A stretch of 32,000 nucleotides of DNA, taken from the NCBI RefSeq assembly GCF_030504625.1, contig NZ_JAUKWH010000005.1:38602-70601 (forward strand), written 5' to 3'. This stretch comes from Neisseria sp. MVDL19-042950. GTDB lineage: Bacteria; Pseudomonadota; Gammaproteobacteria; Burkholderiales; Neisseriaceae. Below the pieces are notes generated by a model, which had not been told where the DNA came from, did not search any database, and was given only the letters and a program-made list of their open reading frames with translations. The position numbers and the translations under genes are program-made. Below are positions 1 through 28,401 of the stretch, piece after piece; positions within the stretch are counted from its first letter, which is position 1, and each line of letters begins with the position of its first letter.

Positions 1-1117
1 AATCTTCGGTTATCCGATTGGCCACAATCACATCAGATGCACGTTTGAATTCGTCTAAATCATTGATGACAGGCGAACGGAAAAAGTGCTCTTCTTGCAA
101 TACCGGTTCATAAACGATTACTTCGATTCCTTTTGCTTTCAAGCGCTTCATAATGCCTTGAATCGAAGATGCACGGAAATTGTCCGAACCGGCTTTCATC
201 ACCAAACGGTAAATCCCTACGGTTTTAGGTTGCCGACGTAAGATATCCTCAGCAATAAAATCTTTCCGAGTGCTGTTGGCCGCAACAATGGCGTGAATCA
301 TGTTTTGAGGGACATCTTGATAGTTTGCCAGTAGTTGCTTGGTATCTTTGGGCAGACAGTAACCGCCGTATCCAAAGCTCGGGTTGTTGTAATGTTTGCC
401 GATACGGGAATCTAAACATACACCGTCAATGATTTGTTGCGTATCCAAACCGTGTACTGCCGCATAGGTATCCAATTCATTGAAGTAAGCAACACGCATT
501 GCCAAGTAAGTATTGGCAAATAATTTTATTGCTTCGGCTTCGGTATTATCGGTAAGCAGTATCGGTGTATCTGGCTTTAATGAAGCATCGCGTAATAACT
601 CGGCAAATTTTTGTGCCCGCTCGGAACGCTCGCCAACTACAATTCTGTTTGGATACAGGTTGTCGTATAAGGCTTTGCCTTCTCTTAAGAATTCGGGAGA
701 AAAGATAATATTTTCAGTATTGAGTTCTTGTTTTAAATGTTCGGTAAATCCAACCGGTACGGTAGATTTAATAATAATTACAGCATTAGGATTAATGGCA
801 ATGGCATCTCGGGCAACGGATTCGACAGAACTTGTATTGAAATAATTGCTTTCAGGATCATAATCCGTAGGCGTTGAAATAATTACATAATCCGCATCAC
901 GATAGGCAGCTTGCTTATCCGATGTAGCATGAAAATTTAAAGATTTGGTGGCAAAATAATCTTCAATCTCTGCATCAACAATAGGAGATTTATATTGATT
1001 TAATAATGCAACTTTTTCTTGATCAATATCGAGGGCAATAACTTCATTATGTTGTGCGAGTAAGACGGAATTGGATAAACCAACGTAGCCTGAGCCTACA
1101 ATAGTAAATTTTTTCAT
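1..1117 (-). CDS. ugd: UDP-glucose 6-dehydrogenase (3' end runs off the left window edge; about 372 codons visible)
   Basis: My own translation of the minus strand from ATG at 1117 gives [32 protein letters not shown] (Rossmann GxGxxG). Further on it gives [22 protein letters not shown], the catalytic-Cys motif of the UDP-Glc/GDP-Man dehydrogenase family. It is missing from the ORF track because it stays open to the window edge. The 513..845 + ORF is its antisense shadow. Confidence 0.9.
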
Positions 1118-1156
1118 TTCAGCGTTTCTATATAGTTATTAATTAAAAAAGAAATC

Positions 1157-3262
1157 TTATTGTTCGAGGGTTAACTTAAAAACATACTTTCTGCTAGCAT
1201 CATCCGTGTCTTCCGGCGCATACTCATAAGAAAGCTTGGCTTGGCGTTTTAAGGAGGCATTAACCACTTTAAAGTGATTTATTTTTTGTAACCCCAGTTT
1301 TTTTATGGAAGTGTTTTCCCCATGTAATACACGGTTATAGCAAATTTTATTGATATGCTTAAATTCACCTACTTCGCTTAATTTAAGGTAAATATCATAG
1401 TCAACTGCATTGGTAATCGTTTCATCAAAGCCTTCAGTTAAATACCATGCGCGGGCAGAAAACATTCTAAAGTGATGAACAATCATTGCGGTTGTTAATT
1501 TTTCACGTGAAAATTCAGGCCAGTTATACCCCTTGGCAATTAATGAACCGTCAGGATTCACGTTTCGATTAGTAGTGTATACACAAGCTAGTTTTCGATT
1601 TTTTAAGAATTCGCTCAAACACAGCTCTACTGCATCCGGCTCCAAGTAATCATCAGAATCCAGCTGGCCGATATAAAATCCACGAGCCATTTTGACGGCC
1701 GCATTGGAGGCAGAAGCAATTCCGCCATTTTTCTTTGTCATAATCCGCACGCGTGGATTATTTCCATAATGACGATGTAAAACTTCCAGAGTGTTATCGG
1801 TAGAGCCGTCATCGCATATGCATACTTCCAAATCGGTAATCGTTTGATTCAATGCACTATCTACACATCTCACGATATATGACGAGCAGTTGTAGGCAGG
1901 AATGTAAATAGACACCAAAGGCACTTTATGTATCGTATCCGACAATAGTGAAGTAGGTTTACGATAGAAATACGGAACTTTTTCTTTTACGATATTAATC
2001 GTAATTTTTTTTCCTTCGGAACGATCTGTTTCGTTTTCTTTTCCGGGTGGTTCTTGATGGTAGGCCATGCCGCCATCTAATGATTGAAAGAAACAACCTT
2101 TTTTAAATAGACGATAACCGAATTCATTATCCTCTCCTCCCCAGTGGGTAAATTCCTCATCAAACCATCCCGCGATGTCTAACCATTTCCGTGCGAATGC
2201 AACGTTTCCTCCGCTGAAATAACGGAAAGGAGAATCGCACAAGCGTAGATTATCGGTTTTAGCAAAGTGCTCTAAACGCCAGTCTATTGAAGCAACGGCT
2301 GTCTGTGTACTACCCACGAGATTGTTGGTTTTGGTTTCCGGCAGGTTGGTTATAAGTTGATCGTTTGCCAAGAAATCTTTAGCTGATAATCCGTGTGTAT
2401 CTACATATTTTCTAGGGCCGACTAATGCCACATTATCATTTTGAAGAAGGCGATGGAGATAAGATTGAACCCAATGTGGATTCGGAGCCATATCGCAATC
2501 AAGAATGGAAACATAATCATACTTTGCAGTACGCAAGCCTAAGTTACGGGTTGCGCATAATTGATACCCGTTATCCGGTTGGCGTACATATTTGATATCT
2601 AATATGTTTTCATATTTCCTTACGACATCGACAATTTGTTGTTGGCTTCCGTCATCCGCAACAATTACTTCAAAAGCATAGTTGGTTTTTTGATTAACCA
2701 AACAGGCTAAAGTAATATCTAGAATCCAGTCGCGATTGAATGTCGGGATAATAATAGACAAACCTATATTGCTATTTTTTATAGATGTTGAAGCAATATG
2801 GTTATATCCGCTTCTTTTCTCTAGCCAGAGATAGTCATTGGGACCTTCAGGTAATGGGGCTAACTGTAAATTTTTAGGCCAATTGCTTGGAATAGGATTA
2901 ACTTTTTTATATTCGGCATCTTCCGATTTTCTTTGAGTTAACTGTTTCCATGCTTTAACTGAATCAGCGCGTTCTGATTCAGATAACTCTAAAAGCCCTT
3001 GATTATTCAAAAGAATTTTTGTTGCGATATCCAGAGTATCTAGGGCGGGCAAAATGTTATTTTGAACTTCGTTGGATGCACATATTGCCTTAGCTTCTTG
3101 GGATAAAGGCGCTATTTTTTTTAGAGCTTCATTACATTTTTTTATATGTAAAGAAACTATTTTTTCACCATATATGTTAGAAGCTTGTTTGAATAATAAT
3201 AAAGCATCTTGGAAATTCTGATTGTTGTAGCAAGCAATAGCTTGACTTAATATTTTTTCCAT
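1157..3262 (-). CDS. Bifunctional dual-GT2 polysaccharide synthase, KfoC / Pasteurella class II hyaluronan-chondroitin synthase type (capsule polymerase)
   Basis: 701 aa with two GT-A modules. Module 1 has IIIPTFNR, VADDGSQQ, ILDCDMAP and WGGEDNEFGYR. Module 2 has VSIYIPAYNCSSYIVRCVDSALNQTITDLEVCICDDGSTDNT, GQLDSDDYLEPDA and KHINKICYNRVLHGENTSIKKL. These strings and the length match what I recall of E. coli K4 KfoC (686 aa) and the PmCS/PmHAS catalytic core. ugd lies immediately downstream. Confidence 0.85.
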   Translation of the reverse strand: MEKILSQAIACYNNQNFQDALLLFKQASNIYGEKIVSLHIKKCNEALKKIAPLSQEAKAICASNEVQNNILPALDTLDIATKILLNNQGLLELSESERADSVKAWKQLTQRKSEDAEYKKVNPIPSNWPKNLQLAPLPEGPNDYLWLEKRSGYNHIASTSIKNSNIGLSIIIPTFNRDWILDITLACLVNQKTNYAFEVIVADDGSQQQIVDVVRKYENILDIKYVRQPDNGYQLCATRNLGLRTAKYDYVSILDCDMAPNPHWVQSYLHRLLQNDNVALVGPRKYVDTHGLSAKDFLANDQLITNLPETKTNNLVGSTQTAVASIDWRLEHFAKTDNLRLCDSPFRYFSGGNVAFARKWLDIAGWFDEEFTHWGGEDNEFGYRLFKKGCFFQSLDGGMAYHQEPPGKENETDRSEGKKITINIVKEKVPYFYRKPTSLLSDTIHKVPLVSIYIPAYNCSSYIVRCVDSALNQTITDLEVCICDDGSTDNTLEVLHRHYGNNPRVRIMTKKNGGIASASNAAVKMARGFYIGQLDSDDYLEPDAVELCLSEFLKNRKLACVYTTNRNVNPDGSLIAKGYNWPEFSREKLTTAMIVHHFRMFSARAWYLTEGFDETITNAVDYDIYLKLSEVGEFKHINKICYNRVLHGENTSIKKLGLQKINHFKVVNASLKRQAKLSYEYAPEDTDDASRKYVFKLTLEQ

Positions 3263-3389
3263 TTGAAAAGCCCCGTAAATTCTTAACTTTTTGAATAGAT
3301 AATTTTTAATATTTCAGCTGATAAATTTAAGAAAACTATCCTCAGCATGTTTTGAATTAACTATAGTATTTAGTTTGATTGTTTCAATT

Positions 3390-4982
3390 TTATTGTACGT
3401 GCGCCATTTGCTTTTCTTTTTTAAACTTTCTTGCAGTGTTGGCCAATACAAAAGGCATAGCAATCCAACGAAGGGGGTTACGGATATAAGTCAGTAAATT
3501 TTGCCCAAGCTGATAAGACAAATGTTTATGAATTCTGTTTATATCCGCAGCATCATTGTAAAAGTGTACTGGCGGCAAATTTTGTTCACATGTTTGCTGT
3601 TCTTTATTCACTCGTTTGGCCGTTCGCAATAATTCGAAAGGCATTTTTATACATCCGCTGAAACTTTTACTTTGCTGAATCATTACTGCGCCCAATTGAT
3701 AAGGCAGTTGGGTGCGCACACGATCAGCGGCTCCGTAGTACACGGGGCGTGCTGCCAAACGTTGTTTTTCTAAATATATTTTTTCCAACTCTTCTTGAAC
3801 AAAGTGGAGCTGTTCCAATAAAAGAGTGTTTTCTTTTTCTATAGAGGATTGGGCATTTTTTAGTTGTTGTAAATTTTGCTTATCCGCTTCAGCTTGTTGA
3901 GTAAATAAATTGATTTTTGATGCTAAATCTGATTTTTCTTTTTCCAATTTCAATTTTTCTTGCAGATGTACGTCATGCTTCTGCTTGTACTCATCAGCTA
4001 TTTTTCTGGTTGCTTTTAATTGCTCTTCAACTTGGTTGTAATGCAAGTGAATGGTTTCGCATTCTTTTTTAGTTGATTGTAATTGTTTGGAAAGTAGCGA
4101 AATATTGTCTTTATCGGCCAAACTGTTTGTCATGAGAGAGGCTATCTCTTGATGTTGCAGCATCATTGTTTGCCATGCGCCCATCACTAATTGGCGGTTG
4201 TTTTTCTTACATAAATCAGATTTCAAAGGTAAATTGGAATTATCTTGTAGCTTCTTATATAGCTCTATTACATCGACATTTTCATGAATTAGCGCATCAG
4301 CAAGATAAGCCGCCAAATTTGTTTGGCTGTTGTTTTCTGTATGCACAGAAAGCTCAAAGTTTTTGTCTTTTGAGGGTTTTAAGAGCTGTGGCTGTTTATG
4401 CGATTTATTTTCTTGGGTTACCCACTGCGCTCCTATATGGTGAGAAATTTTCTTCAAATATTTTTTAATAGAAAGCTGAGCCTGTTGGCTATGTACCAGC
4501 AAGCAACGGTTTTTATTATGCAGATAAAAGTTTAATAAACTTTCATTATAGGTAAGCCACTCTTGTAATTTTTGAGCAGTAACGCTTTCTGTCAGCATTT
4601 GAGGCGCACGCGTCAAGACGCTATTCGGTTGGTCGTAAACCAGAATAAAGTGCATGGAACTATCCATATCGCGCCAATAATTTAAAAGGCTGTTCGCTTC
4701 AGGATCTGCCCATCCCCAAAATGGTTGATCAATATTTCCAAGAAATAAATCCATAGCCAGGCCGTACCAAGCCGCTTCAATATGAAGTTGTTGTTCTGTT
4801 TCATAACGGCGAGGTGTATATAAAGAAGGCCGAGCAGACCTTGCCAATAATGAATCGATTTCTAAGGGAGACATTCCATCTCTTTTGGATGGCAATGCAT
4901 GACCCATACCATGGTTGTATAGAAGTTGCTCTACAGCTTGATAGTTAGAATGTTGATGTCCGACGATGAGAATTTTAGCCAT
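3390..4982 (-). CDS. Capsule-region protein of unknown function: N-terminal globular domain, long central coiled coil, duplicated C-terminal motif
   Basis: 530-aa ORF, first gene of the synthesis operon, with AGGGGA upstream of the ATG. Residues ~290-410 are heptad-like and K/E/Q/L-rich (KQKHDVHLQEKLKLEKEKSDLASKINLFTQQAEADKQNLQQLKNAQSSIEKENTLLLEQLHFVQEELEKIYLEKQRL). The C-terminus carries two copies of Y..AAD..R....L.YQLG...(12-14)...MPF.L..TA+. I recognise no family with certainty. Confidence 0.8.
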   Translation of the reverse strand: MAKILIVGHQHSNYQAVEQLLYNHGMGHALPSKRDGMSPLEIDSLLARSARPSLYTPRRYETEQQLHIEAAWYGLAMDLFLGNIDQPFWGWADPEANSLLNYWRDMDSSMHFILVYDQPNSVLTRAPQMLTESVTAQKLQEWLTYNESLLNFYLHNKNRCLLVHSQQAQLSIKKYLKKISHHIGAQWVTQENKSHKQPQLLKPSKDKNFELSVHTENNSQTNLAAYLADALIHENVDVIELYKKLQDNSNLPLKSDLCKKNNRQLVMGAWQTMMLQHQEIASLMTNSLADKDNISLLSKQLQSTKKECETIHLHYNQVEEQLKATRKIADEYKQKHDVHLQEKLKLEKEKSDLASKINLFTQQAEADKQNLQQLKNAQSSIEKENTLLLEQLHFVQEELEKIYLEKQRLAARPVYYGAADRVRTQLPYQLGAVMIQQSKSFSGCIKMPFELLRTAKRVNKEQQTCEQNLPPVHFYNDAADINRIHKHLSYQLGQNLLTYIRNPLRWIAMPFVLANTARKFKKEKQMAHVQ

Positions 4983-5389
4983 AATGTCCCCTTTAAAAGA
5001 AATAATCCCTTGGGTTAGTATTAAATTAATTATGTAAATATTAGTAAGTAAATTTTTGTAACGATAATCTTTGTTTTTTGAAAATACCTTAACTTTAATA
5101 AGCTTAACGCAATTTCAATAGCTATTTGTCATATTTATTAACATATGACATTAACATAAATACATGTTTTTATAACGTTAATTTACTTTTCCTTGATAAA
5201 TTTTTTCGATATTATATTAAAAAAATCTTCGCAGGTATAGTGCCACTTGGTATTATTTTTGAAATAAGTATGAATTATGATTTTTTCATTTAAAAATATG
5301 TTTTTAAAAACATATTTAAGAGTGTTACTAAATGCGCCAGATGTTAGAATGCTTTCGTTTGTAACGCTGCATAATGAAAAAGGGAACAG
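4983..5389. promoter_or_regulatory. AT-rich divergent control region between the capsule synthesis operon (-) and ctrABCD (+)
   Basis: 407 bp without ORFs between divergent starts. It contains a perfect 24-bp palindrome, AAATATGTTTTTAAAAACATATTT, at 5294-5317. It also contains an 8-8-8 inverted repeat, TGTCATAT-N8-ATATGACA, at 5127-5150. I could not place -35/-10 boxes confidently. Confidence 0.5.
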
Positions 5390-6589
5390 GTGAATTTCTT
5401 TATGAATTTGATAAATAAAAATATTTTTCGATTTTGGATTTGGGGGATCGGGATGGCATTGTTTTTGCCGGGATGTGGTGTCGTGCCTACTTCCGGACCA
5501 AGTTACAGTCAGGCAACAGCTTTGGGAAATTTGAAAGATGCTGAAAATTTACCGGTTGTAGAAGTAATTGATATAACGGATTCTGTGTTGGGGCATCTGC
5601 ATCATTCTGCGGAAAGCTACTCGTTTGCTGAGTTTTCAGCTAATAGTAAAGGTTATAACGATTTGGTTGATGCCGGCGATGTGTTGGATATTGCAATATG
5701 GGAAGCCCCTCCTGCGTTGTTGTTCGGCGGGGCACTTACATCACTGGGTTCGGGGAATGCACAATTAACAAAACTACCCGAACAAATGGTGGCTAATAAC
5801 GGAAAGATTACCGTCCCGTTTCTCGGTGCTTTGTATGTAAAAGGCAAAACACCGGAGGCTATTCAAAATGACATTGTTAACCGCCTGAGGAAAATGGCAA
5901 ATCAGCCGCAAGTGATGGTGCGGTTGGTTAAAAACAATTCTGCAAACGTTGTGGTGGTAAGGGCCGGCAGTAGTATCCGTATGCCGCTAACAGCACAAGG
6001 AGAAAGGGTTTTGGATGCTGTGGCGGCCATCGGGGGAACCACGGATGACATACGGGATGTTTCAGTTCAATTGACTCGAGGGGGAGTAGTAAAAACTATT
6101 GCATTTGAAACACTTACCACTAAACCTGCTGAAAATGTTTTATTACGCACGGGAGATGTTGTAGCCCTTCATTCCAAACCACTCAGTTTTACCGCTTTGG
6201 GCGCTGTTGGAAAAGTACAACAATTCCGCTTTTCAGCCAAAGGGATGAATTTGGGAGAGGCGCTCGGTCAGATGGGGGGCTTGCTGGATCGAAGAGCCAA
6301 TCCTAAGGGTGTATTTATATTCCGCTATCAGCCTTTATCCAAACTGTCGCAACCCGAACAAGGTAAATGGCTGGCTAAAGGGTATACCATGGATGCAAAT
6401 GTACCCACCGTATATCGCATAGATTTGCTAGATGCTAAATCTTTATTTTGGATGCAAAAATTTGCCATGCAAGACAAAGACATCGTTTATGTGGCAAATG
6501 CCCCGCTGGTTGAACTGCAAAAATTCCTACAGTTTGTTTTTTCTCCTGTTGTCAGTGGTGCCAGCAGTATCAACAATATAGCTAATTAA
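5390..6589 (+). CDS. ctrA: Capsule polysaccharide export outer-membrane lipoprotein CtrA (KpsD/Wza-like)
   Basis: 399 aa with an N-terminal lipobox (ALFLPGC). Its position and length match meningococcal CtrA, and it is followed by ctrBCD. The start is ambiguous: GTG at 5390 (AAGGGA upstream) or ATG at 5402. Confidence 0.88.
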   Translation: MNFFMNLINKNIFRFWIWGIGMALFLPGCGVVPTSGPSYSQATALGNLKDAENLPVVEVIDITDSVLGHLHHSAESYSFAEFSANSKGYNDLVDAGDVLDIAIWEAPPALLFGGALTSLGSGNAQLTKLPEQMVANNGKITVPFLGALYVKGKTPEAIQNDIVNRLRKMANQPQVMVRLVKNNSANVVVVRAGSSIRMPLTAQGERVLDAVAAIGGTTDDIRDVSVQLTRGGVVKTIAFETLTTKPAENVLLRTGDVVALHSKPLSFTALGAVGKVQQFRFSAKGMNLGEALGQMGGLLDRRANPKGVFIFRYQPLSKLSQPEQGKWLAKGYTMDANVPTVYRIDLLDAKSLFWMQKFAMQDKDIVYVANAPLVELQKFLQFVFSPVVSGASSINNIAN

Positions 6590-6601
6590 TGGAGCATTGA
6601 A

Positions 6602-7750
6602 ATGTCAGAACAGAAAAATACAGAGGCAACAAATGCTCAAAAAAAGAAAAAGCGCAGCTTTTTTACAAAATGGGGGGCTTTATTCTGGGGTACGGTAATT
6701 ATTCCTACCGTATGTTCTACGGTGTATTTTTCAGTTTGGGCGGCCGACCAATATATATCCGAATCCAGTTTTGTTGTGCGTTCCGCCCGTAATCAATCGG
6801 CGTTAAGCGGAATAGGCGCACTATTGCAAAATGTCGGGTTTTCCCGTTCGCAGGATGATACCTATACTGTGCGGGAATATATGGAATCGCGCACGGCGTT
6901 GGAAGCGTTGGAAAAAACGATTCCCGTGCGCGAATACTATGAACAGAAAGGCGATGTTTTCAGCCGCTTTAACGGGTTCGGCTTTTTTGATTCAAACGAG
7001 GCTTTCTATCAATACTATAAAAATAAGGTCAATATTGCTTTCGATCCGGTGTCGGGTATTTCGGTGCTGAGAGTGGAATCGTTTGATGCCAAAGAATCGC
7101 AGCAGATTAACGCCGCCTTGTTGAATAGGGCGGAAGAGTTAATCAACAAATTAAATGCCCGTGCGCGCAAAGATACGATCGAGCAGGCCGAACACGGTGT
7201 CGAAGCGGCCGAAGAACGGGTAAAAAATGCGGCAGGAAAAATGGCTGAGTACCGTACTCAAAACGGCATTTTTGATTTGAAAGCACAGTCCGAAGCACAG
7301 ATGGAGCTGGTGTCGAAATTGCAAGACGAGTTGATTGTGATTCAAACCCAGTTGGATCAAGTGCGGGCGGTAACGCCGGAAAACCCGCAAATTGCAGGTT
7401 TGCTGGCCCGCGAAAAAAGCCTCCGCCGCGAGATCAAAGATCAAATGCAGAAAATTTCCGGCACTTCGAATAGTTCCATTGCTACGCAAGCTGCCAACTA
7501 TCAGCGGTTATTTCTGGAAAATGAGCTGGCCGAAAAACAATTGGCTACTGCTTTGGTGTCATTGGAAAACGCTAAGTCCGAAGCCGATCGCAAGCAGTTG
7601 TATTTGGAAGTGGTGTCCCATCCGAACAGGCCGGACATGGCTTTGGAGCCCAAGCGTATCTACAATATTGTGGCAACATTTATTATCGGTTTGATTTTAT
7701 ACGGTATTTTGAGTTTATTGATTGCCAGTGTGAGAGAGCATAAAAACTGA
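6602..7750 (+). CDS. ctrB: Capsule export inner-membrane protein CtrB (KpsE family, PCP-3)
   Basis: 382 aa with an N-terminal TM (GALFWGTVIIPTVCSTVYFSVWA), a coiled-coil periplasmic region and a C-terminal TM (IVATFIIGLILYGILSLLIA). GGAG precedes the ATG. The stop overlaps the ctrC start (TGATG). Confidence 0.9.
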   Translation: MSEQKNTEATNAQKKKKRSFFTKWGALFWGTVIIPTVCSTVYFSVWAADQYISESSFVVRSARNQSALSGIGALLQNVGFSRSQDDTYTVREYMESRTALEALEKTIPVREYYEQKGDVFSRFNGFGFFDSNEAFYQYYKNKVNIAFDPVSGISVLRVESFDAKESQQINAALLNRAEELINKLNARARKDTIEQAEHGVEAAEERVKNAAGKMAEYRTQNGIFDLKAQSEAQMELVSKLQDELIVIQTQLDQVRAVTPENPQIAGLLAREKSLRREIKDQMQKISGTSNSSIATQAANYQRLFLENELAEKQLATALVSLENAKSEADRKQLYLEVVSHPNRPDMALEPKRIYNIVATFIIGLILYGILSLLIASVREHKN

Positions 7751-8547
7751 TGAAAGCGTTGCACGAAACTACGTTTAAACAATCGCTGGCCATTCAAATG
7801 CGGGTAATCGGTGCACTGTTGATGCGTGAAATCATTACCCGTTACGGGCGCAATAACATCGGTTTCCTGTGGCTGTTTATGGAACCTTTATTGCTTACGT
7901 TGCTTATCGTATTGGTGTGGAAGTTTGTACGCGCAGATCAATTTTCGGCATTGGATATTGTTGCCTTTGTGCTTACAGGTTACCCCATGGCCATGATGTG
8001 GCGTAATGCTTCCAACCGTGCCATCGGAGCGATTGCCGCCAATGCCAGCTTGCTGTACCACAGAAATGTGCGCGTGCTGGATACGGTTGTAACACGCATA
8101 TTGTTGGAAGTGGCAGGGGCAACCGTTGCCCAAATCATGATTATGGCGGTGTTGATAGCGATACGTTGGATCGAAATGCCGGCTGATATTTTCTATATGC
8201 TGCTCGCTTGGTTGCTGATGGCCATGTTTGCTTTTGGGCTGGGGCTGATTATTTGTGCCGTTGCCTTCAAATTCGATTCGTTCGGCAAGTTGTGGGGAAC
8301 GTTGAGTTTCATCATGCTGCCTTTGTCGGGAGCATTCTTTTTTGTGTCGGTTATACCCCAACCGATGCAAAAATATATTTTGTGGATACCTATGGTGCAT
8401 GGTACCGAAATGTTCCGGCACGGGTATTTCGGTCATTCGGTTATCACTTATGAAAATCCGTGGTTTTTGATTTTGTGCAATATCGTGATGCTGTTGCTGG
8501 GTTTGGCCATGATCAGCAAGTTCAGTAAAGGAGTGGAGCCGCAATGA
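7750..8547 (+). CDS. ctrC: Capsule export ABC transporter permease CtrC (KpsM family)
   Basis: 265 aa, multi-TM ABC-2 type. [43 protein letters not shown]... closely matches my recollection of meningococcal CtrC. There is an ATGA overlap with ctrD. Confidence 0.92.
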
Positions 8548-9194
8548 TTTCAGTCGAACATGTATCTAAGCGGTATCGGACGCGCGAAGGCTGGAAAACA
8601 GTTTTAAGCGGTATCGATTTCAAACTCGAAAAAGGCGAAAAAATCGGTATTTTAGGCCGAAACGGGGCGGGTAAATCCACACTGATACGCTTGATCAGCG
8701 GTGTGGAACCGCCCACCGAAGGAGAGATTAAACGCACGATGAGTATTTCTTGGCCGTTGGCGTTCAGCGGGGCGTTTCAAGGCAGCCTTACCGGTATGGA
8801 TAATTTGCGTTTTATCTGTCGGATTTATAACGTAGATATGGATTACGTGAAGGCGTTTACCGAAGAGTTTTCCGAGCTGGGACAATATCTGTATGAGCCG
8901 GTAAAACGCTATTCTTCGGGCATGAAAGCGCGGCTGGCCTTTGCATTGTCGCTGGCGGTCGAGTTTGACTGCTATCTGATTGACGAAGTGATTGCGGTGG
9001 GCGACTCGCGTTTTTCCGAAAAATGCCGCTACGAACTGTTTGAAAGGCGTAAAGACCGCTCGATAATTTTGGTTTCCCACAACCATAGCGCAATGAAGCA
9101 ATATTGCGATAACGCGATGGTGTTGGAAGCGGGGAAGCTGTATAAGTTCGATAATATGGACGAAGCGTATCAATACTATAACGCCTGTCTGTAA
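8544..9194 (+). CDS. ctrD: Capsule export ABC transporter ATPase CtrD (KpsT family)
   Basis: 216 aa with Walker [10 protein letters not shown], signature [12 protein letters not shown] and Walker B CYLIDE. It is nearly colinear with meningococcal CtrD as I recall it. Confidence 0.95.
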
Positions 9195-9211
9195 GCCGCC
9201 GTATTTGTTTG

Positions 9212-9242
9212 GAGGCCGTCTGAAATCTTTTCAGACGGCCTC
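9212..9242 (+). terminator. Inverted DUS pair hairpin downstream of ctrD
   Basis: GAGGCCGTCTGAAA-tct-TTTCAGACGGCCTC forms a perfect 14-bp stem 18 nt after the ctrD stop. Confidence 0.65.
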
Positions 9243-9257
9243 AGTTATAATACCCGC

Positions 9258-11426
9258 ATGATCTATCACCACATCGCCCTCAATATTCCCATTTCAGACG
9301 GCCTCTTAACCTACGGCCACCCGACCGCCTTGCCCAAAGGCTGTCGGGTGGTGGTGCCGTTTCGCGGCAAACCCGTTGCCGGTGTGGTGTGGGCGGGCGG
9401 CGTAACGCCGGAGATTGACGCGGCGAAAATCCTGCCGGTTCAGACGGCCTTTACCGACGAACCGCTGTTTCCCGAAAGCTGGTGCAAGCTGCTGGAGTTC
9501 ACTTCGCGCTATTACCATTATCCGCTCGGGCAGGCCGTGTTTACCGCGCTGCCTTTGGGCTTGAAAGAGACCAAGCCCGTCGAAACACCGCAGCCGTCGC
9601 AGTTTTATGCTTTGAACGAAACAGGTAAAGCGCAAACCCCGCCGCCGGAGCGTTTCCACAAAAAACACGCCTTATGGCAGGCTTTGTTTTCAGACGGCCT
9701 CAGCATGGCGGCCTTGAAACACATCCACAACCAAGCACCGAAGCTGCTGCAAGAGTGGATGGAAAACGGCTGGATACGCACCACCCAAGCCGCCGCGCCC
9801 GTGTCGAGGCCGTCTGAACACCGATTAAACGCCGAGCAGCAAGCCGCCGCGCAAGCCGTTCAGACGGCCTCCGATACCTTCAAACCCTTCCTGCTCTACG
9901 GCATCACCGGCAGCGGCAAAACCGAAGTCTATTTCGACGTGATGGCCAAAGTGCTGGCGGCGGGCAGGCAAGTGCTGTTTCTGCTGCCCGAAATCAACCT
10001 CACACCGCAACTGCTCAAGCGCGTGGAAGCCCGTTTTGCCGACGTGCCGACCGCCGTGCTGCACAGCCAAACCGCGTCCGGCAAACGCACCCAAGACTAC
10101 CTGCGCGCCATGCTCGGGCAGGCCAAACTGATTATCGGCACGCGGCTGGCCGTGTTCACCCCGCTGCCCGATTTGGGCTTGGTGGTGGTGGACGAAGAGC
10201 ACGATACCTCGTTCAAACAAGACAACGAACTGCGCTACCAAGCCCGCGATTTGGCCGTTTGGCGCGCACGGCAAAGCAGTTGCCCCATCGTGCTCGGCAG
10301 CGCCACCCCCAGTTTGGAAAGCTGGCACAAAGCGCAAACCGGCGCGTACCAACTGCTCGAACTGACCGAGCGCGCCCATTCCGCCGCCCAACTGCCGCAA
10401 GTCGATATCTTAGACGTGCGCCGCCTGCCGCTCGACAACGGCTTCTCGCCGCAAGCCCTGAAACTGCTCAAAACCAACCACGAACAAGGCGGCATGTCGC
10501 TGGTGTATCTCAACCGCCGCGGTTTCGCGCCCGCCCTGTTTTGCGGGGACTGCGGCCACACCTTCGGCTGCCCCCGCTGTTCCGCCAAAATGGTGCTGCA
10601 CCAACGCGCCCGCCAACTGCGCTGCCACCATTGTGATTTCAGACGGCCCGTACCCTACAAATGCCCCGAATGCGGCAACCAAGACCTTACCGCCGTCGGC
10701 CACGGCACCCAACGCGTCGAAGAAACCCTGCGCAACTTCATCCCGCAAGCCAAAGTCGCCCGCGTCGACCGCGACAGCACCGCCCACAAAAACGACTGGG
10801 CCGATTTATACCAACGCATCGCCGCCAACGACATCGACATCCTCGTCGGCACCCAAATGCTCGCCAAAGGCCACGACTTCGCACGGCTGAACCTCGTGAT
10901 CGTATTAAACGCCGACGGCAGCCTGTACAGCGCCGACTTCCGCGCCCCCGAAAGACTGTTTGCCGAACTGATGCAGGTTTCCGGCCGGGCAGGGCGCGCC
11001 GAAGCAGCCGGCAAAGTGCTTATCCAAACCCAACTGCCAGAACACCCCGTATTCGCTGCCGTAAAAGCGCAAAACTACCGCATCTTCGCCGAAAACGAGC
11101 TGAACGAACGGCAAACATTCAATATGCCGCCCTTCGGTTTTCAGACGGCCATCCGCGCCGATGCCGTCAAAATCGACGAAGCCGTGCAGTTTCTTAACGA
11201 CATCCAAGCCGTTACCCAACCGCTGCTGCCCGAAACCGTATCCGCCTTCGGCCCCGTACCCATGCTGATGGCGCGGCTGGCCGAACGCGAACGCGCCCAA
11301 GTGTTTTTAGAATCCGCCTCCCGCAAAGACCTGCACCACGCCGTGAGCCTGTGGGTGCAAGTGTTGCAGCAGTACCGCGACGGCAAAGTAAGATGGTCGG
11401 TGGATATCGACCCGCAAGAGATGTGA
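9258..11426 (+). CDS. priA: Primosomal replication-restart helicase PriA (protein N')
   Basis: 722 aa with Walker A GITGSGKTEVY and DEEHD. It has the Cys-rich zinc module CGDCGHTFGCPRCSAKMVLHQRARQLRCHHCDFRRPVPYKCPECGN, and GTQMLAKGHDF. Confidence 0.95.
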   Translation: MIYHHIALNIPISDGLLTYGHPTALPKGCRVVVPFRGKPVAGVVWAGGVTPEIDAAKILPVQTAFTDEPLFPESWCKLLEFTSRYYHYPLGQAVFTALPLGLKETKPVETPQPSQFYALNETGKAQTPPPERFHKKHALWQALFSDGLSMAALKHIHNQAPKLLQEWMENGWIRTTQAAAPVSRPSEHRLNAEQQAAAQAVQTASDTFKPFLLYGITGSGKTEVYFDVMAKVLAAGRQVLFLLPEINLTPQLLKRVEARFADVPTAVLHSQTASGKRTQDYLRAMLGQAKLIIGTRLAVFTPLPDLGLVVVDEEHDTSFKQDNELRYQARDLAVWRARQSSCPIVLGSATPSLESWHKAQTGAYQLLELTERAHSAAQLPQVDILDVRRLPLDNGFSPQALKLLKTNHEQGGMSLVYLNRRGFAPALFCGDCGHTFGCPRCSAKMVLHQRARQLRCHHCDFRRPVPYKCPECGNQDLTAVGHGTQRVEETLRNFIPQAKVARVDRDSTAHKNDWADLYQRIAANDIDILVGTQMLAKGHDFARLNLVIVLNADGSLYSADFRAPERLFAELMQVSGRAGRAEAAGKVLIQTQLPEHPVFAAVKAQNYRIFAENELNERQTFNMPPFGFQTAIRADAVKIDEAVQFLNDIQAVTQPLLPETVSAFGPVPMLMARLAERERAQVFLESASRKDLHHAVSLWVQVLQQYRDGKVRWSVDIDPQEM

Positions 11427-11462
11427 AGAGGCCGTCTGAAAACTGTTTTTCAGACGGCCTCT
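11427..11462. terminator. Inverted DUS pair hairpin shared by convergent priA (+) and the repeat-protein gene (-)
   Basis: AGAGGCCGTCTGAAAA-ctgt-TTTTCAGACGGCCTCT forms a perfect 16-bp stem. It starts 1 nt after the priA stop and ends 15 nt before the stop of the convergent gene. Confidence 0.7.
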
Positions 11463-11476: not shown

Positions 11477-13070
11477 TTAGCTTTTAGAAGAAGATTCGGG
11501 AAAAGCCTCTTTAAACCATGCTTGGAATTCGGGGGTGTGGCGGATGTTGTCCAAACCGTCGTCTTGTTCAATATGTTCTTTGTTGGGGAAATGATTTGAA
11601 TGTTGTGCAAGACGTAATTGTTTGATTGCTTCGACTGTATTTCCTTCCAAGGCACACAGGCAGGCATGGTTATAGGCAAAGTTTTCTTGATGTTGAGGAT
11701 ATTTATTTAAGAATCCATCAATCAAATTGCGGGCTTGTTGCAATTTGATTTGTGCTTCGGCAGGTTGATTGTCTTTTAAAATATGAAGTTCATGTAGTAA
11801 AGCGCTTAACCAGTTATAAGCGGCCTCATGCATGTCGGGCTTGATAGTCAATGCTTGCCGGTATTTTTCTCCTGCGTCACGCCATTTTTCCAAGGCTGTC
11901 GCGGTATCGCCTTGTGTGGCCAAAACCTGCGCTTCGTCAGCTAAGGCCTTTCCCCAGTTATCGGCGACTTCGTGTATGTCAGGCTCAATAGCCAATGCTT
12001 GTTGGAATTTTACTCCTGCGTCAACGCCATTTTTCCAATGCCATTACGGTATCGCCCTGTATAGCCAAAGCCTGTGCTTCTTCAGCTAAAGCACTTCCCC
12101 AGTTATTGGCTGCTGGATAAAAGTCATTTTTAATTTGTAAAGCCAATTCGTATTTTTCTCCTGCGCTTTGCCATTTATCGAATGCTGCTGAAGTTTGATT
12201 TTGTGTGTATAAATTTCGTGCTTCCATATATAAGGCACGTCCCCAATTATAGGCAGCGATATATTTTCTAGGATTAGAGCGTAATGTTTCTTGGTGGTAT
12301 TGTTCGACTTTGGGGAGCCAATAATTCTGTTGTTTGCGATTACCTTTTTCGTATAAATAACAAGCGTGAAATCCTGCGTTGAAGTTGGCTTGTTCATCTC
12401 TACTATCTTGTAGAAGAACAGCTTGCCAAGCATAAAGAGCGTTTTCATTATCTTGATAATTTTGGCTTCTTTTCGCTTGATCTGAAAGCAAAATAGCTTG
12501 GGCGCGTAGTTGTTCGATAAGGGGAATTTCTTCATTTTTAGACAATTGTTTTGCTTTTTCAATGCTGCTTGTTTGTGCTTCCTGATTTTGTTCTTTGGGG
12601 TTCCATTGCTTCATTTCTGCAATGTCTTGAGTATATTTTTCAGCACTGTCGTAATGTTCTTTGATTTTTTCTACATATTCTTTAGCCTGTTCTAGGTCTT
12701 GTTCTAATTGACGTTTATCTTTTTTATAAAGTAAAAGTGGAATGGCAACGCCTATGGCTGCAATAACAATGCCTGCCACGGCAAAGACTATGGTAATAAA
12801 GGTCATCCACCAGTTGAGGTTTTGTTGCTGGTTATCCATAACCTGCATACGCAATGCTGAAATATTGTCTTGCAGCATTTCAGCTTGTGAGGCAATCAGA
12901 TTGTTTATTTTCGGTTGTTTATCCGTTGTGGTTTCCACTGTTTTTGTTATGGAGGAGTTGCTTGCCCCCGTTTGTTTCGGATCGGCTAATGTATCGGCAG
13001 TCGCGGAAAAGGCAAACGGCAAGCTGAGTATCAAAGCTGAAAGGAAGGATTGAAAAAAGCGGTTGTTCAT
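11477..13070 (-). pseudogene. Signal-peptide / TM / coiled-coil / TPR-like repeat protein, split by a 1-bp insertion (ORFs 12021..13070 and 11477..11995)
   Basis: The upstream ORF ends ...NNWGSALAEEAQALAIQGDTVMALEKWR*. The same 48-aa repeat unit continues in the next frame (DAGVKFQQALAIEPDIHEVADNWGKALADEAQVLATQGDTATALEKWRDAGEKY...). At DNA level, cctgcgtcAAcgccatttttcca at 12014-12036 compares with the paralogous repeat cctgcgtcAcgccatttttcca at 11871-11892. Removing one A at 12023/12024 gives one 530-aa ORF. Confidence 0.7.
11825..12257 (-). repeat. Three consecutive diverged 144-bp (48-aa) coding repeats inside the repeat-protein gene
   Basis: The units are AAYNWGRALYMEARNLYTQNQTSAAFDKWQSAGEKYELALQIKNDFYP, AANNWGSALAEEAQALAIQGDTVMALEKWR(D)AGVKFQQALAIEPDIHE and VADNWGKALADEAQVLATQGDTATALEKWRDAGEKYRQALTIKPDMHE. 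The frameshift lies inside the middle unit. Confidence 0.75.
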
Positions 13071-13326
13071 CGGCGTGTCCTAATCGATAGGGTGTTGATT
13101 ATAAAGAGGTAAACCGCAAATGGATACTTCCCGAATATCCGGAAAAAGGTAGTTGTTCGTAACCTTGAGATGCTACTTTAATATTCAACAGGTATTTTTA
13201 CATAAATTTATAAGTTGCTAATTTGGTTGATTATTTTGTTGTGTCATTTTTGACGGATACAACTGTTTTAAGCGGGTTTTGCTTGACTTTTAAGCATTGC
13301 CCGCTTTGTTATTTTGCGTTAGTTTG

Positions 13327-14290
13327 TCAGGGAGCCTGATAACGTTCCGACTGAAAAGTAGTTTTGTTTTTGTAAAGATTAAAGGCGATAACCGCCAGTT
13401 TTCGCATGATCGCCGTGATAATGACTTTTGACAGTTTCTTCTTTTGCTTAAGACGTTTTGTAAATTCGGGAAAGTATCCGCGAGCATAGGCGACCATAGC
13501 AGGCATGAATAATGCGGCACGCAAACGCCTATTCCCGAAGCGGGTTATCCTACTTTTGCCGTTTACACTGATTCCCGACTGCCTTTGATGCGGACTTAAT
13601 CCGGCAAAGGCGACAAATTGACCGGCGTTTTTAAATGTACCGGATAAGAGATGGTTGGTTAGAATGGCGGCGGTTAACTTGCCAATCGAAGGTATGGTTT
13701 GAAGGCCGTCTGAAACGTCTTTCAGTTCAGGATACTGCATGATTTTTTTCCATTTCAGCTCTCACCAAAGAAAGCTGTTTTTGGATATGGACGATGTTTT
13801 CACGATGAATTTGTTTGACAAATTCATCTTTGGCCGCCGAAAGCCTGTTCTTTTCTGCCGTCTGACTTTCAATAAGCTGTTCCTGTAATGCCAAAACACG
13901 CTTTAAGCGGTAATGGGCTTTTGATACGGGTTTCCTCAAGGGCAAATCTTTCGGCAAAGCAGTACTGCAATATTCGGCAATGAGTTTTGCATCTTGCTTA
14001 TCGGTTTTGGTTCGAGCAAAGCGGCTTTTGGCATAGTCGCTTATTTTCAGAGGATTAATGACGGATATTCTGTAATCTTTGCCCATGTAATCGGCAACAT
14101 CTTCAAAGTAGTTTCCGGTTGCTTCCATACAAATATGGATATCGGAACAATTGAAATTATCCAACCAGCCTTTCAGCTTTTCAAAGCCTTTTATGCCATT
14201 CTCGAATTTCGCTGTTTTAACAACACCGTCTATCAGCAATGCTGCATCAAAGGTTTTATGCGATATATCCAATCCCAAAGCGTTTCTCAT
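13327..14290 (-). pseudogene. IS110-family (Piv/pivNM-irg-like, DEDD) recombinase, interrupted by a +1 frameshift in an A7 tract
   Basis: The N-terminal ORF 13727..14290 reads MRNALGLDISHKTFDAAL...ICMEATGNYFEDVADY...TDKQDAKLIAEYC, the DEDD_Tnp_IS110 type. The C-terminal ORF 13327..13740 reads IPSIGKLTAAILTNHL...FAGLSPHQRQSGISVNGKSRITRFGNRRLRAALFMPA, the Transposase_20 type. The two overlap at GGAAAAAAATCATG (T7 on the + strand at 13743-13749). With A6, a single 320-aa ORF reads ...VRAEMEKIMQYPELKDVSDGLQTIPSIGK. Confidence 0.85.
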
Positions 14291-14713
14291 TATTACCCTT
14301 ACTATTCAGATTCATACTGACGTATGTTCTTTGATGCTACCCAATCTTTATAAACAAGAAATCCCCCGCTTCAATCTCAAGTACAAGCTATATCGCTTTG
14401 GCCGTTGTCGAAGTCGAGGGATACGGTTTGAATTACGTCTAATCCAAACCTTTAAGCCGTCTGTTTCCAAACGGCTTAAAACTTTGAATTAGCATTTTAT
14501 TGCTTTGAATTGTTGATTTTGCTTAAAAATTAAGCGATTTTTGGGGTTTTAGCGAGCTCGCGGGAGAACGCCGGAAGCAACAAAATTGCCGAAAAGCAAA
14601 CTGGCGGGAGGTCCCGCACCCCGAGACCATTTTTTTATTGCCGCCCCCTCTAAAAACATGCCGTGCTATCCGAACATACGCGAGGAGGGTTCGACAATAA
14701 AAAAATGGCCAAA

Positions 14714-14881
14714 TCAAAGATTAACAAAATACCAAATAACAACAGACAAAATAAAACCAATGCAAATACCAAGCAAAGGATAACCAAACCACTCTTTTAA
14801 AATATATTTAGTACCTTTTTTCCTATGAACATGAATAATTGCATAAAGAATAAGACCTGCAATAACAATCTCTAAAACCAT
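14714..14881 (-). CDS. Small two-TM hypothetical protein immediately after zot (below ORF-track size cutoff)
   Basis: My own translation gives MVLEIVIAGLILYAIIHVHRKKGTKYILKEWFGYPLLGICIGFILSVVIWYFVNL (55 aa). The ATG lies 8 nt after the zot stop. It has two hydrophobic helices separated by a basic loop. No family recognised. Confidence 0.4.
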   Translation of the reverse strand: MVLEIVIAGLILYAIIHVHRKKGTKYILKEWFGYPLLGICIGFILSVVIWYFVNL

Positions 14882-14888
14882 TCGGCAC

Positions 14889-16046
14889 CTACTGCATATT
14901 CACACGGGCTTCATTGTAGCCGTCATACATTAAATTAGACTTCGACGCACCACCCATCACTAATACTTGCTGCGACTCCACCGCTGGCGATACTACCGTT
15001 TGGGCAGGTGTTTCTACCGTTTGTCTATCCTTATAGGGATTATAAATACCGTTTTCGGCGTAATCAATACACTGGGATTTTTTTATGCCTTTTATCGGTG
15101 TGGCTTGGTCTGTATAACATGTGCATTTACCTTCGGTTTTGACACAGGCAACCGGAAACGGCATGGTCTTAATGCTTTTATTGTGGACGTTGTATATCGG
15201 CGCAGTCCACGGCTGGCCGTCTATAACCGGCTTGTAATCATCTTCGGCCAAATGGGGCTTACTCTCTGGCTTAGACTGAACAGGCACCGGCGGGTATTGC
15301 CCCGCTTGGCTTGCGTCATTTGTGGTAGGAGCCGCCACCAACGCACCCCCGGCGGGGCTTGCCGCTGGAGCGGCAACTTGAGCTTGTGAAGTGGATTCCT
15401 GTTTATCTACATAGCTGTTCCAACTACTGTATACATACCAAGCTGAAACTATAATAGTAAGCAATACAACGGGAACAATATAAACAACGCGGCTTAACTT
15501 GGTATTGATTTTGGTGTGTTCTTCAGCCGACCTATACACGCCGAATGCCTTTTTATCCAAGGTATACACGCTTTTTACGGCACTTTGAACACTGGTCTTA
15601 CTTGTCGGATCACCGCAGCTTTCCCATTCCAACATTCGTCTTACACCGAGATTGGTTTTGCTGATATGGCAGTGATGACCTATCAGGCTTCGGACATTAA
15701 TATCTATCAGTCTTGGATGTTGGGTTAACAAAAATATATCTATACCTTTGTGTCGGTGCGTTTCAAGCTCGGCAACGAAATCGGGCACTTTCGAACCGCT
15801 TGGCCGCGGTCTGAATACGCGCTGGCACTCATCTATAACAAGGATAGCCCCCGTAGGCGCCCATTTATGCCACGTCTGCATGGTTTCGCCTTCGGGCATG
15901 GGCAGGTTGGGAATAATATCGCCTCTTACTTCCGGTATTCCGTCTAAGTAAAGAGGGCGGTTTTTCAAATCTTTCCGATTCATCAAATCGGAAATCATTT
16001 TTAAGGTTTTTCCGCTACCCGGAACACCGGTAATCAAATAGAGCAT
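14889..16046 (-). CDS. Zot-like filamentous phage assembly ATPase (pI family)
   Basis: 385 aa starting MLYLITGVPGSGKTLKMI (Walker A), with VIDECQ (Walker B-like). It has a central TM (VVYIVPVVLLTIIVSAWYVYSSW) and a Pro/Ala-rich periplasmic tail, the typical Zot/pI architecture. Confidence 0.9.
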   Translation of the reverse strand: MLYLITGVPGSGKTLKMISDLMNRKDLKNRPLYLDGIPEVRGDIIPNLPMPEGETMQTWHKWAPTGAILVIDECQRVFRPRPSGSKVPDFVAELETHRHKGIDIFLLTQHPRLIDINVRSLIGHHCHISKTNLGVRRMLEWESCGDPTSKTSVQSAVKSVYTLDKKAFGVYRSAEEHTKINTKLSRVVYIVPVVLLTIIVSAWYVYSSWNSYVDKQESTSQAQVAAPAASPAGGALVAAPTTNDASQAGQYPPVPVQSKPESKPHLAEDDYKPVIDGQPWTAPIYNVHNKSIKTMPFPVACVKTEGKCTCYTDQATPIKGIKKSQCIDYAENGIYNPYKDRQTVETPAQTVVSPAVESQQVLVMGGASKSNLMYDGYNEARVNMQ

Positions 16047-16067
16047 TTGTGTTTTCCTTTTCCGTTA

Positions 16068-16346
16068 TTATTTGCGCTGAATACTGGCCGATAGCTTGGA
16101 CATGGCTTTAAGGGATGCGACAAAAGCAAAGGTGCCGAATATCCAATTGAGCACTACGCCAATTCCTACTATATAGGCTAAATTCAATGCATCGCTTGGG
16201 ATTCCGCCTATCTGTTCCTGCACTTTCGAAATGAAATAGCCTTGCAATTCATTAAGGCCGACATACGACACGAAAGACAACCCCAATGCGGCAATCACAC
16301 GACCGGCGACATTCATCAATACGCCTGTTATCAATGAACCCCACAT
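16068..16346 (-). CDS. Small integral membrane protein, pVI-like minor coat (DUF2523-like position)
   Basis: 92 aa with three hydrophobic segments. It lies between the pIII-like gene and zot, as in other inoviruses. Confidence 0.6.
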   Translation of the reverse strand: MWGSLITGVLMNVAGRVIAALGLSFVSYVGLNELQGYFISKVQEQIGGIPSDALNLAYIVGIGVVLNWIFGTFAFVASLKAMSKLSASIQRK

Positions 16347-16347
16347 A

Positions 16348-25022: not shown

Positions 25023-25054
25023 TTTCTTTCTCCTTTGTAGTCAGATAATGCGGC

Positions 25055-25159: not shown

Positions 25160-26344
<1,185 letters not shown>

Positions 26345-28396: not shown

Positions 28397-28401
28397 AATC
28401 A

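Follow-up and report, generated by a model that had tools for sequence, protein, structure and literature searches.

A probable chondroitin-type capsule locus inserted upstream of priA in Neisseria sp. MVDL19-042950

Positions 1 to 9194 of a 32,000-nucleotide stretch of DNA (the window) from Neisseria sp. MVDL19-042950 carry a block of seven intact genes, all of which align full-length with their homologues. Within an ABC-transporter-dependent (group 2-type) capsule locus of the chondroitin type, inserted upstream of the core gene priA, the block probably represents the export half together with some of the synthesis half. The gene identities, the motifs and family membership of the polymerase, the insertion junction, and the contrast in base composition are direct observations. 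As a first-pass annotation of the sequence had described, ctrABCD is divergent from an operon encoding a 530-residue protein, a 701-residue enzyme with two family 2 glycosyltransferase (GT2) modules, and the UDP-glucose 6-dehydrogenase Ugd; coordinates and domain matches agree with this layout (Table 1). The serotype-specific synthesis region (genes for the HyaE-like 530-residue protein, the synthase, and Ugd) adjoins the export genes and diverges from ctrA. The export genes are of the group 2 type: a KpsM/KpsT-type exporter (ctrC and ctrD), along with KpsE and KpsD homologues (ctrB and ctrA).

Capsules of chondroitin, hyaluronan, or heparosan copy host sugars, and the cited literature discusses the molecular camouflage through which they mask infection. 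Chondroitin-type group 2 capsules are already known in Escherichia coli K4, Pasteurella multocida type F, Avibacterium paragallinarum, and Moraxella bovis, and no new mechanism is proposed here, since every component has characterised relatives. According to the searchable surveys, a glycosaminoglycan-type synthesis region is new to the genus Neisseria, and adds a capsule class to it. The searchable literature yielded no description of a chondroitin-type or kfoC locus in Neisseria; the words "chondroitin", "hyaluron", and "glucuron" appear nowhere in the capsule survey of non-pathogenic Neisseria (PMC6202450), and the region A types listed there by Clemence et al. (2018) include neither a glycosaminoglycan synthase nor ugd. 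The locus and its relatives also illustrate how capsule type varies within N. zoodegmatis, offer a clean case of a capsule cassette at different chromosomal sites, and supply a short, KfoC-length polymerase from an enzyme family used for chondroitin production outside animals.

The polymerase and its linked genes

Sequence comparisons support assignment of the 701-residue protein to the KfoC/PmCS/PmHAS family of bifunctional glycosaminoglycan synthases (class II, with two GT2 modules). The Pfam domain Glycos_transf_2 matches it twice, at residues ~168-405 and 451-603. The crystallised E. coli K4 chondroitin polymerase (K4CP; PDB 2z86/2z87) matches with an E value of 8e-286; query residues 76-695 align with chain residues 5-622, at 65% identity over 618 residues. 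KfoC of E. coli K4 has the same short architecture (~690-700 residues), with two GT2 modules and all of the motifs. These motifs lie exactly as first described: in module 1, DDGS (residues 203-206), DCD (255-257), and WGGEDNEFGYR (374-384, its WGGED core at 374-378); in module 2, CDDGSTD (483-489, with DDGS at 484-487) and DSDD (535-538, with DSD at 535-537). DCD and the first DDGS are invariant in all 28 aligned family members; WGGED, the second DDGS, and DSD each show substitutions in at least one of the 28, the core residues being kept in nearly all. The role of the DXD motifs in this enzyme class has been described (PMC11673988). The protein is also 67% identical to one named "chondroitin synthase CS [P. 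multocida]", and the likeness to KfoC and PmCS that the first-pass annotation had noted is borne out. The P. multocida synthases are longer (965-972 residues), and their C-terminal region of ~265 residues, a hypothetical membrane-docking domain (PMC11673988), has no counterpart in the 701-residue enzyme.

Homologues were sought among 5.8 billion clustered proteins. The exact 701-residue sequence (WP_302066431.1) bears the database name "MULTISPECIES: glycosyltransferase [unclassified Neisseria]" and comes from three assemblies (MDO1509874.1, MDO1516072.1, and MDO1563187.1). Its next relatives come from N. dumasiana (82% identity), N. zoodegmatis (81%), and Uruburuella testudinis (77%), along with unnamed metagenome proteins at 75-78%. 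A plateau at 62-70% follows, which includes Pasteurellaceae, Moraxella, Pseudomonas, Comamonas, and E. coli; the hit from Av. paragallinarum, at 70%, is the closest among species-representative genomes. In a neighbour-joining tree, the Neisseriaceae synthases form one clade, adjoining a Pasteurellaceae/Moraxella group. Existing annotation gives a hint of such a locus: one N. dumasiana database entry is named after the eukaryotic chondroitin glucuronyltransferase.

The linked genes recur with the synthase. A module of HyaE-like protein, synthase, Ugd, and KfoG-like protein is conserved in Pasteurellaceae, Moraxella, a K4-like Escherichia locus, Cupriavidus, and Sphaerotilus. As the first-pass annotation had proposed, the order hyaE-hyaD-hyaC of P. 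multocida is matched gene for gene: the 530-residue protein is 31% identical to HyaE end to end (E value 2e-88), the synthase is 64-67% identical to its P. multocida counterparts, and Ugd is 65% identical to HyaC. The P. multocida capsule loci, namely type F fcb (PmCS, chondroitin) and type A hya (PmHAS, hyaluronan), share the same type of export genes. The P. multocida hyaE gene diverges from phyA (kpsS), with hyaB followed on its own strand by the hex genes (PMC2816674), whereas the synthesis operon in the window is divergent from ctrA.

Region 2 of E. coli K4 (kfoA-G) has linked kfoB-like, kfoC-like, and kfoF (ugd)-like genes in common with the window, and a K4-like Escherichia locus has the order kfoA-kfoB-kfoC-x-kfoF-kfoG. 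In contrast, the export genes in the window are of the Neisseria/Pasteurellaceae ctrABCD type, only 27-46% identical to kpsM/T of the Escherichia locus, and are divergent from the synthesis operon; neither IS2 nor a fructosylation candidate gene was seen in the window. The M. bovis locus contains a KfoC-length synthase (686 residues, 66% identical overall) and the genes for HyaE-like protein, synthase, Ugd, and KfoG-like protein in the same order, but its capsule genes are split into spaced subclusters (PMC12797221) and the synthase gene has no ctr genes within 10 kb. In N. meningitidis cps and the loci of non-pathogenic Neisseria, ctrABCD (region C) is likewise divergent from a low-GC, serogroup-specific region A, and there too the locus was acquired horizontally.

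The insertion upstream of priA

PriA of this strain shares 98% identity with the protein encoded in the complete genome of Neisseria sp. Dent CA1/247, 93% with that encoded on a contig from the ENA database, and ~79-82% with those of other named Neisseria. In both Dent CA1/247 and the ENA contig, the gene immediately upstream of priA encodes 3-deoxy-D-arabino-heptulosonate 7-phosphate (DAHP) synthase, and capsule genes are absent within 10 kb; the locus is absent from this site in the two closest relatives. By blastn, homology between the window and Dent CA1/247 begins at window position 9213 (91.5% identity), which places the right end of the block between the ctrD stop codon at 9194 and position 9212. 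In a three-way alignment, the sequences are unrelated before an inverted pair of DNA uptake sequences (DUS) of the AG type (9215-9239), and nearly identical from the pair into priA; the pair belongs to the conserved sequence upstream of priA in the relatives. Because the DAHP synthase-priA arrangement is uninterrupted in the two closest relatives, and because the edge of homology is sharp, these results support the conclusion that the capsule locus is an insertion immediately upstream of priA in strain MVDL19-042950. This chromosomal site differs from those of the known Neisseria capsule loci (PMC6202450).

Base composition also sets the block apart. The block has a GC content of 0.37-0.46, versus 0.51 for the rest of the window. 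The synthesis half, earlier described by eye as AT-rich, indeed stands out: ugd, the synthase gene, and the 530-residue gene have GC contents of 0.38-0.40 overall and 0.33-0.35 at third codon positions (GC3). The corresponding values are 0.44-0.475 and 0.40-0.58 for ctrA-D, 0.61 and 0.74 for priA, and ~0.53-0.60 and 0.59-0.76 for the core genes to the right of the block. The DUS 10-mer GCCGTCTGAA occurs 32 times in the window, where 0.05 copies are expected by chance. Thirty-one copies fall within 9215-11458 and 21277-31909, in keeping with the earlier count of about 31 in some 13 kb of core sequence; the remaining copy, at 13705, is inside a second accessory block. The first-pass annotation had found no DUS in 1-9211, and none occurs in 1-9214 even with one mismatch allowed, whereas the DUS density in the remainder of the window predicts ~12.9 copies for this segment (Poisson P ~2e-6, or ~2e-4 with paired DUS treated as clusters). 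The horizontal acquisition proposed from these two features is upheld by them and, more strongly, by the empty site in the two closest relatives.

Two further observations concern the DUS. First, 28 of the 32 copies in the window are preceded by AG (AGGCCGTCTGAA), the AG-DUS dialect, as opposed to the AT-DUS of N. meningitidis and N. gonorrhoeae. Second, the priA coding sequence contains seven DUS (9293-11149), an unusually high intragenic density; both relatives have six of them at the matching positions, and one relative has the seventh as well.

The closest homologues of every gene in the block, with the same divergent layout, are found in N. dumasiana, N. zoodegmatis GCA_900454205, and U. 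testudinis. Identities to the window proteins are 77-82% for the synthase, 79-85% for Ugd, and 91-93% for CtrD, but only 42-53% for the HyaE-like protein. In N. dumasiana and N. zoodegmatis GCA_900454205, ctrDCBA is divergent from genes for the DUF8374 (HyaE-like) protein, synthase, Ugd, a GT2 protein, an epimerase, KpsC, and KpsS; in all three species, the locus includes an epimerase gene, and kpsC and kpsS are downstream of ugd. The ctrDCBA-ugd segment contains only a single DUS in each of N. zoodegmatis and N. dumasiana, and their kpsC/epimerase part contains six. In N. dumasiana and N. zoodegmatis, the locus is flanked by AsmA/NMO genes on one side and an S49 peptidase gene on the other; U. 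testudinis carries it at yet another site. The type strain of N. zoodegmatis is reported to carry a serogroup I-like region A (PMC6202450). Together, the different sites across species and the different region A of the type strain form the pattern of a mobile, exchangeable cassette.

Part of this cassette is nearly identical in two species: between N. zoodegmatis GCA_900454205 and N. dumasiana, the KfoG-like GT2 protein, the epimerase, and KpsC share 96-99% amino acid identity, with 85% for KpsS. Together with the different region A of the type strain, this suggests recent exchange, and capsule switching within the species. The U. testudinis locus (CP091508; locus coordinates 8216-9988, 12093-13241, and 16057-17907) contains extra genes: open reading frames (ORFs) of 590 and 382 residues without a Pfam match, which flank the synthase gene, and genes of the DAHP_synth_1 family and for an NTP_transferase. 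Judging from this gene content, the U. testudinis polymer may be decorated or otherwise unlike plain chondroitin.

Insertion is not the only way to arrive at such a pattern. The locus might instead be ancestral in this Neisseria lineage and lost in the relatives, its low GC content being the normal look of a capsule region. The identities within the Neisseriaceae synthase clade (75-82%) are within the range of core-protein divergence, given PriA at ~79-82% to other named species; region A genes of other Neisseria have GC contents of 27-46% (PMC6202450); and N. dumasiana and N. zoodegmatis also have few DUS in the equivalent segment. Nevertheless, ancestry with loss appears unlikely, because both closest relatives (PriA 98% and 93%) retain DAHP synthase-priA intact, with a clean break at the conserved DUS pair; because N. 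dumasiana and N. zoodegmatis carry the locus elsewhere on the chromosome, and U. testudinis at yet another site; and because the N. zoodegmatis type strain has a different region A (PMC6202450). Acquisition by insertion remains the preferred explanation, with a different member of the Neisseriaceae as the most likely source of the block.

A recent origin in Pasteurellaceae or E. coli was also considered, and rejected: the nearest homologues are from Neisseriaceae (77-82%, versus 63-70%) and form a clade of their own.

A different doubt concerns function. If the block were a non-expressed or incomplete remnant (without kpsC/kpsS, without a supply of UDP-N-acetylgalactosamine (UDP-GalNAc), or in a phase-off state), no capsule would be made. 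Only part of the locus is visible, and promoter-like sites are not enriched in it. On the other hand, the seven genes are intact and align full-length with their homologues; occurrence of the exact 701-residue protein in three assemblies, along with a 96%-identical HyaE-like protein, suggests maintenance; and the relatives hold complete loci. A silent remnant is therefore quite unlikely.

Sugar choice, the HyaE-like protein, and proposed capsule assembly

To which sugar the hexosamine module is matched was judged by comparison with the P. multocida hya locus (hyaE-hyaD-hyaC), taken from a synthetic-metagenome contig. This locus is regarded as genuine because its first gene encodes exactly the sequence named HyaE (NCBI, UniProt); because its synthase falls in a P. 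multocida cluster of 492 members, among them 972-residue forms, 972 being the published length of PmHAS; and because its third gene encodes a dehydrogenase. A protein-database search with a PmHAS fragment returned only PmCS-type proteins, at 84%. Between PmCS and the hya-locus synthase (HyaD), identity is 97.6% in the glucuronic acid (GlcA) module A2 and 70.4% in the hexosamine module A1, so the difference in sugar choice lies in A1. Module A1 of the 701-residue enzyme is 71% identical to that of PmCS, 73% to that of the M. bovis enzyme, and 63% to that of HyaD.

Diagnostic positions point the same way. At 18 columns of A1, PmCS, FcbD, and the M. bovis and E. coli homologues agree and the hya-locus synthase differs; the 701-residue enzyme has the chondroitin-type residue at 16 of these, another residue at two, and the HyaD-type residue at none. 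One segment, GYQLCATRNLGLRTAKYDYVSIL (residues 232-254), follows the chondroitin-type consensus GYQLCA.RNLGLRTAKYD.VSIL at all but three positions; the corresponding segment of the hya-locus enzyme is GFQASAARNMGLRLAKYDFIGLL. As a sequence proxy, these comparisons favour a hexosamine module of the chondroitin (GalNAc) type over the hyaluronan (N-acetylglucosamine, GlcNAc) type. The first-pass annotation had proposed a chondroitin- or hyaluronan-like capsule; that proposal is narrowed to its chondroitin side, and the hyaluronan side finds no match among the 18 columns.

Two other genera offer precedents. M. bovis strains with a homologue of bacterial chondroitin synthase make unsulfated chondroitin, as determined by nuclear magnetic resonance (PMC12797221), and the M. 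bovis synthase sequences retrieved here are 66% identical to the 701-residue enzyme. For Av. paragallinarum, a characterised chondroitin synthase is cited in PMC8858990.

The epimerase encoded in the N. zoodegmatis locus has Cys at the position of Tyr299 in E. coli GalE, where the K4-like KfoA has Ser. A small residue at this position is compatible with 4-epimerisation of UDP-GlcNAc.

A hyaluronan synthase of the PmHAS kind, polymerising GlcNAc and GlcA into a hyaluronan capsule, would have the same family, architecture, and motifs (the 701-residue enzyme is 64% identical to the hya-locus synthase overall and 78% in A2), and no 4-epimerase gene is visible in the window. Against it stand the A1 columns, with none of 18 residues specific to HyaD and 16 of 18 common to the chondroitin-type enzymes; the epimerase gene in the nearest relatives' version of the locus; and the distribution of the two states among the characterised members cited, with the chondroitin type in several genera and hyaluronan confined to one P. 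multocida lineage. A hyaluronan capsule is thus improbable.

Several points weigh against reading the block as an inserted, chondroitin-type capsule locus. Within the 32-kb window, which ends inside ugd, there are no KpsC/KpsS (CtrE/CtrF) β-Kdo (3-deoxy-D-manno-2-octulosonic acid) transferases, no 4-epimerase, and no KfoG/HyaB-like GT2 protein. HyaD is the sole divergent lineage in the family, so the chondroitin assignment is one of parsimony, not proof. The same segment is also low in GC and poor in DUS in the relatives, and the compositional signature is therefore a property of the cassette that does not date the transfer. No integrase, tRNA, direct repeat, or insertion sequence was found at the right border in tRNA, Rfam, and repeat scans. 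Finally, the absence of a homologue elsewhere in Dent CA1/247 is concluded solely from its not being among the named hits. More generally, the Rfam and tRNA scans of the window gave no matches, and the repeat search for island borders found only repeats that contain DUS.

The product of the first synthesis gene belongs to a widespread family. A HyaE-like gene is immediately upstream of the synthase gene in 18 loci, from Pasteurellaceae, five Moraxella species, K4-like Escherichia (the kfoB position), Cupriavidus, Sphaerotilus, and Neisseriaceae, and an exhaustive search found 1406 cluster representatives of the HyaE/KfoB family, including one protein 96% identical to the 530-residue sequence. 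Pfam gave no match to the 530-residue protein, even up to an E value of 5; precomputed Pfam annotations place DUF8374 on its N. zoodegmatis and N. dumasiana homologues. The protein consists of a conserved N-terminal domain (residues 1 to ~190); a variable coiled coil (~290-410), shorter than that of HyaE; and two C-terminal repeats of GAAxRVxxxLxYxLG, each followed by a hydrophobic stretch.

An AlphaFold2 model of residues 1-195, built with a 22-sequence alignment, has a mean predicted local distance difference test score (pLDDT) of 89.7 and a predicted template modelling score (pTM) of 0.86. Single-sequence AlphaFold of the entire protein (pLDDT 44.9) is informative for the coiled coil only. 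The best fold matches to the N-domain model in the PDB are tyrosylprotein sulfotransferases 2 and 1 (TPST2 and TPST1; E value 2e-6, template modelling score 0.68), followed by other sulfotransferases and nucleotide kinases; the sequence profile of the domain gave a marginal sulfotransferase match in the PDB (E value 0.02). A sulfotransferase fold is thus a high-confidence prediction for the N-domain of this HyaE/KfoB-family protein. In the HyaE family, GHPxSGY takes the place of the sulfotransferase motif PRSGTT, and Asp is found where the 3'-phosphate-binding Arg aligns, so residues that bind the donor 3'-phosphoadenosine-5'-phosphosulfate (PAPS) appear not to be conserved. Because these residues do not seem to be retained, and because the polymers of related systems are unsulfated, the domain is probably non-catalytic.

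A sulfotransferase-fold protein beside glycosaminoglycan synthases whose known products are unsulfated makes an odd pairing. The kfiB gene of E. coli K5 has been termed a putative sulfotransferase gene (PMC13171606). In a reconstituted P. multocida system, the capsule is more diffuse, with fewer puncta, without HyaE, and is absent without HyaB (PMC11041684). In a modest version of its role, the N-domain may be a pseudo-enzyme, binding the glycosaminoglycan chain by recognition and arranging sites of assembly or export. If the N-domain were instead active with PAPS or another activated donor, the family would modify polymer or primer, and a modified, even sulfated, chondroitin-like capsule could result; this reading is very improbable.

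These observations suggest a pathway for chondroitin-type capsule assembly, for which we infer the sugar specificity, the polymer, expression, and the gene content left of the window. By analogy with N. dumasiana and N. zoodegmatis, the remainder of the locus would be found a short way beyond the left edge of the window: genes for a KfoG/HyaB-like GT2 protein and a 4-epimerase, along with kpsC and kpsS (ctrE and ctrF). Ugd would convert UDP-glucose to UDP-GlcA and, to judge from the relatives' loci, the epimerase would supply UDP-GalNAc, while the KpsS and KpsC homologues would build the lipid-linked Kdo primer. The KfoG/HyaB-like GT2 protein would probably act early; in the P. multocida system, HyaB is indispensable. 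In the polymerase, module A1 (residues ~160-440, with DCD at 255-257 and WGGED at 374-378) would add the hexosamine, most likely GalNAc, and module A2 (~441-690, with DSD at 535-537) would add GlcA. The chain would grow at its non-reducing end through alternate single-sugar additions at the two sites, as in the enzyme class (PMC11673988), to give an unsulfated chondroitin backbone. The HyaE-like protein would be an accessory or organising factor of assembly rather than a catalyst of the repeat unit. Finally, the ABC transporter CtrD/CtrC, with CtrB and CtrA, would carry the lipid-anchored polymer to the surface.

Some P. multocida synthases have a hexosamine module of the PmCS type, whereas their C-terminal part agrees with the hya-locus enzyme and not with the other PmCS variants. 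This suggests mosaic recombination between the type A and type F synthase genes.

Gene layout and neighbouring features

Table 1. Features of the capsule block and its right flank (window coordinates)
Feature	Position	Strand	Basis or remark
ugd, UDP-glucose 6-dehydrogenase (hyaC/kfoF equivalent)	2-1117	minus	start codon 1117-1115
701-aa bifunctional two-module GT2 polymerase, KfoC/PmCS family	1157-3262	minus	two Glycos_transf_2 domains
530-aa HyaE/KfoB-family protein (DUF8374), first gene of synthesis operon	3390-4982	minus	HyaE homology
Intergenic region, 407 bp, 24% GC	4983-5389		between divergent synthesis and export operons
ctrA, kpsD/hexD-type outer-membrane polysaccharide export lipoprotein	5390-6589	plus	Pfam Poly_export and SLBB_2
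ctrB, kpsE-type inner-membrane/periplasmic export protein	6602-7750	plus	NCBIfam TIGR01010
ctrC, kpsM-type ABC-2 permease	7750-8547	plus	Pfam ABC2_membrane
ctrD, kpsT-type ABC ATPase, final gene of block	8544-9194	plus	Pfam ABC_tran
Right junction	9195-9239		18 bp unique to the strain, then inverted AG-DUS pair 9215-9224 / 9230-9239
priA, core gene flanking the block, not part of the capsule system	9258-11426	plus	NCBIfam primosomal protein N', E value 5e-298

The 3' end of ugd is beyond the left edge of the window, so that 372 of ~390 residues are visible and the C-terminus is cut. Ugd matches the Pfam UDPG_MGDP_dh N-terminal, central, and C-terminal domains and the NCBIfam model PRK15057 (UDP-glucose 6-dehydrogenase, E value 3e-189), and is 84-85% identical to the N. 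dumasiana and N. zoodegmatis ugd products.

Divergent promoters presumably occupy the intergenic region, given the gene arrangement. A promoter-like site is located at 5228-5256 on the plus strand. A scan of 1-9400 revealed no enrichment of such sites (14, versus 24 in shuffled sequence); as they are no commoner than chance, no promoter was called.

The export proteins vary in how closely they resemble their relatives. CtrA, with a lipobox-like LPGC at its N-terminus, is 65-66% identical to CtrA of N. dumasiana and N. zoodegmatis; its true start may be the ATG at 5402. CtrB scores 512.7 bits against TIGR01010 (BexC_CtrB_KpsE; cutoff 437.5). CtrC matches the NCBIfam model for KpsM below its cutoff, and is 74-77% identical to the proteins of the Neisseria relatives. 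CtrD is 92-93% identical to its N. dumasiana and N. zoodegmatis counterparts, and 77-81% to Pasteurellaceae homologues.

The second accessory block (~13300-21000; GC content 0.39-0.47, one DUS) has the look of a filamentous prophage of the Nf/MDA type. Its minus-strand genes (13727-14290, 14889-16046, 16348-18306, and 19437-20990) encode a Rep_trans replication initiator (517 residues), a TspB-like protein (652 residues), a Zot-family assembly ATPase (385 residues), and a truncated IS110-family transposase (187 residues). With the capsule block on its left and this prophage-like block on its right, priA has an accessory region on each side.

The gene downstream of priA (11477-13070) is present as two ORFs (172 and 349 residues), versus a single 597-residue ORF in Dent CA1/247. 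This region contains tandem repeat units of 144/145 bp that resemble tetratricopeptide repeats, and the split may reflect variation in repeat number or a frameshift.

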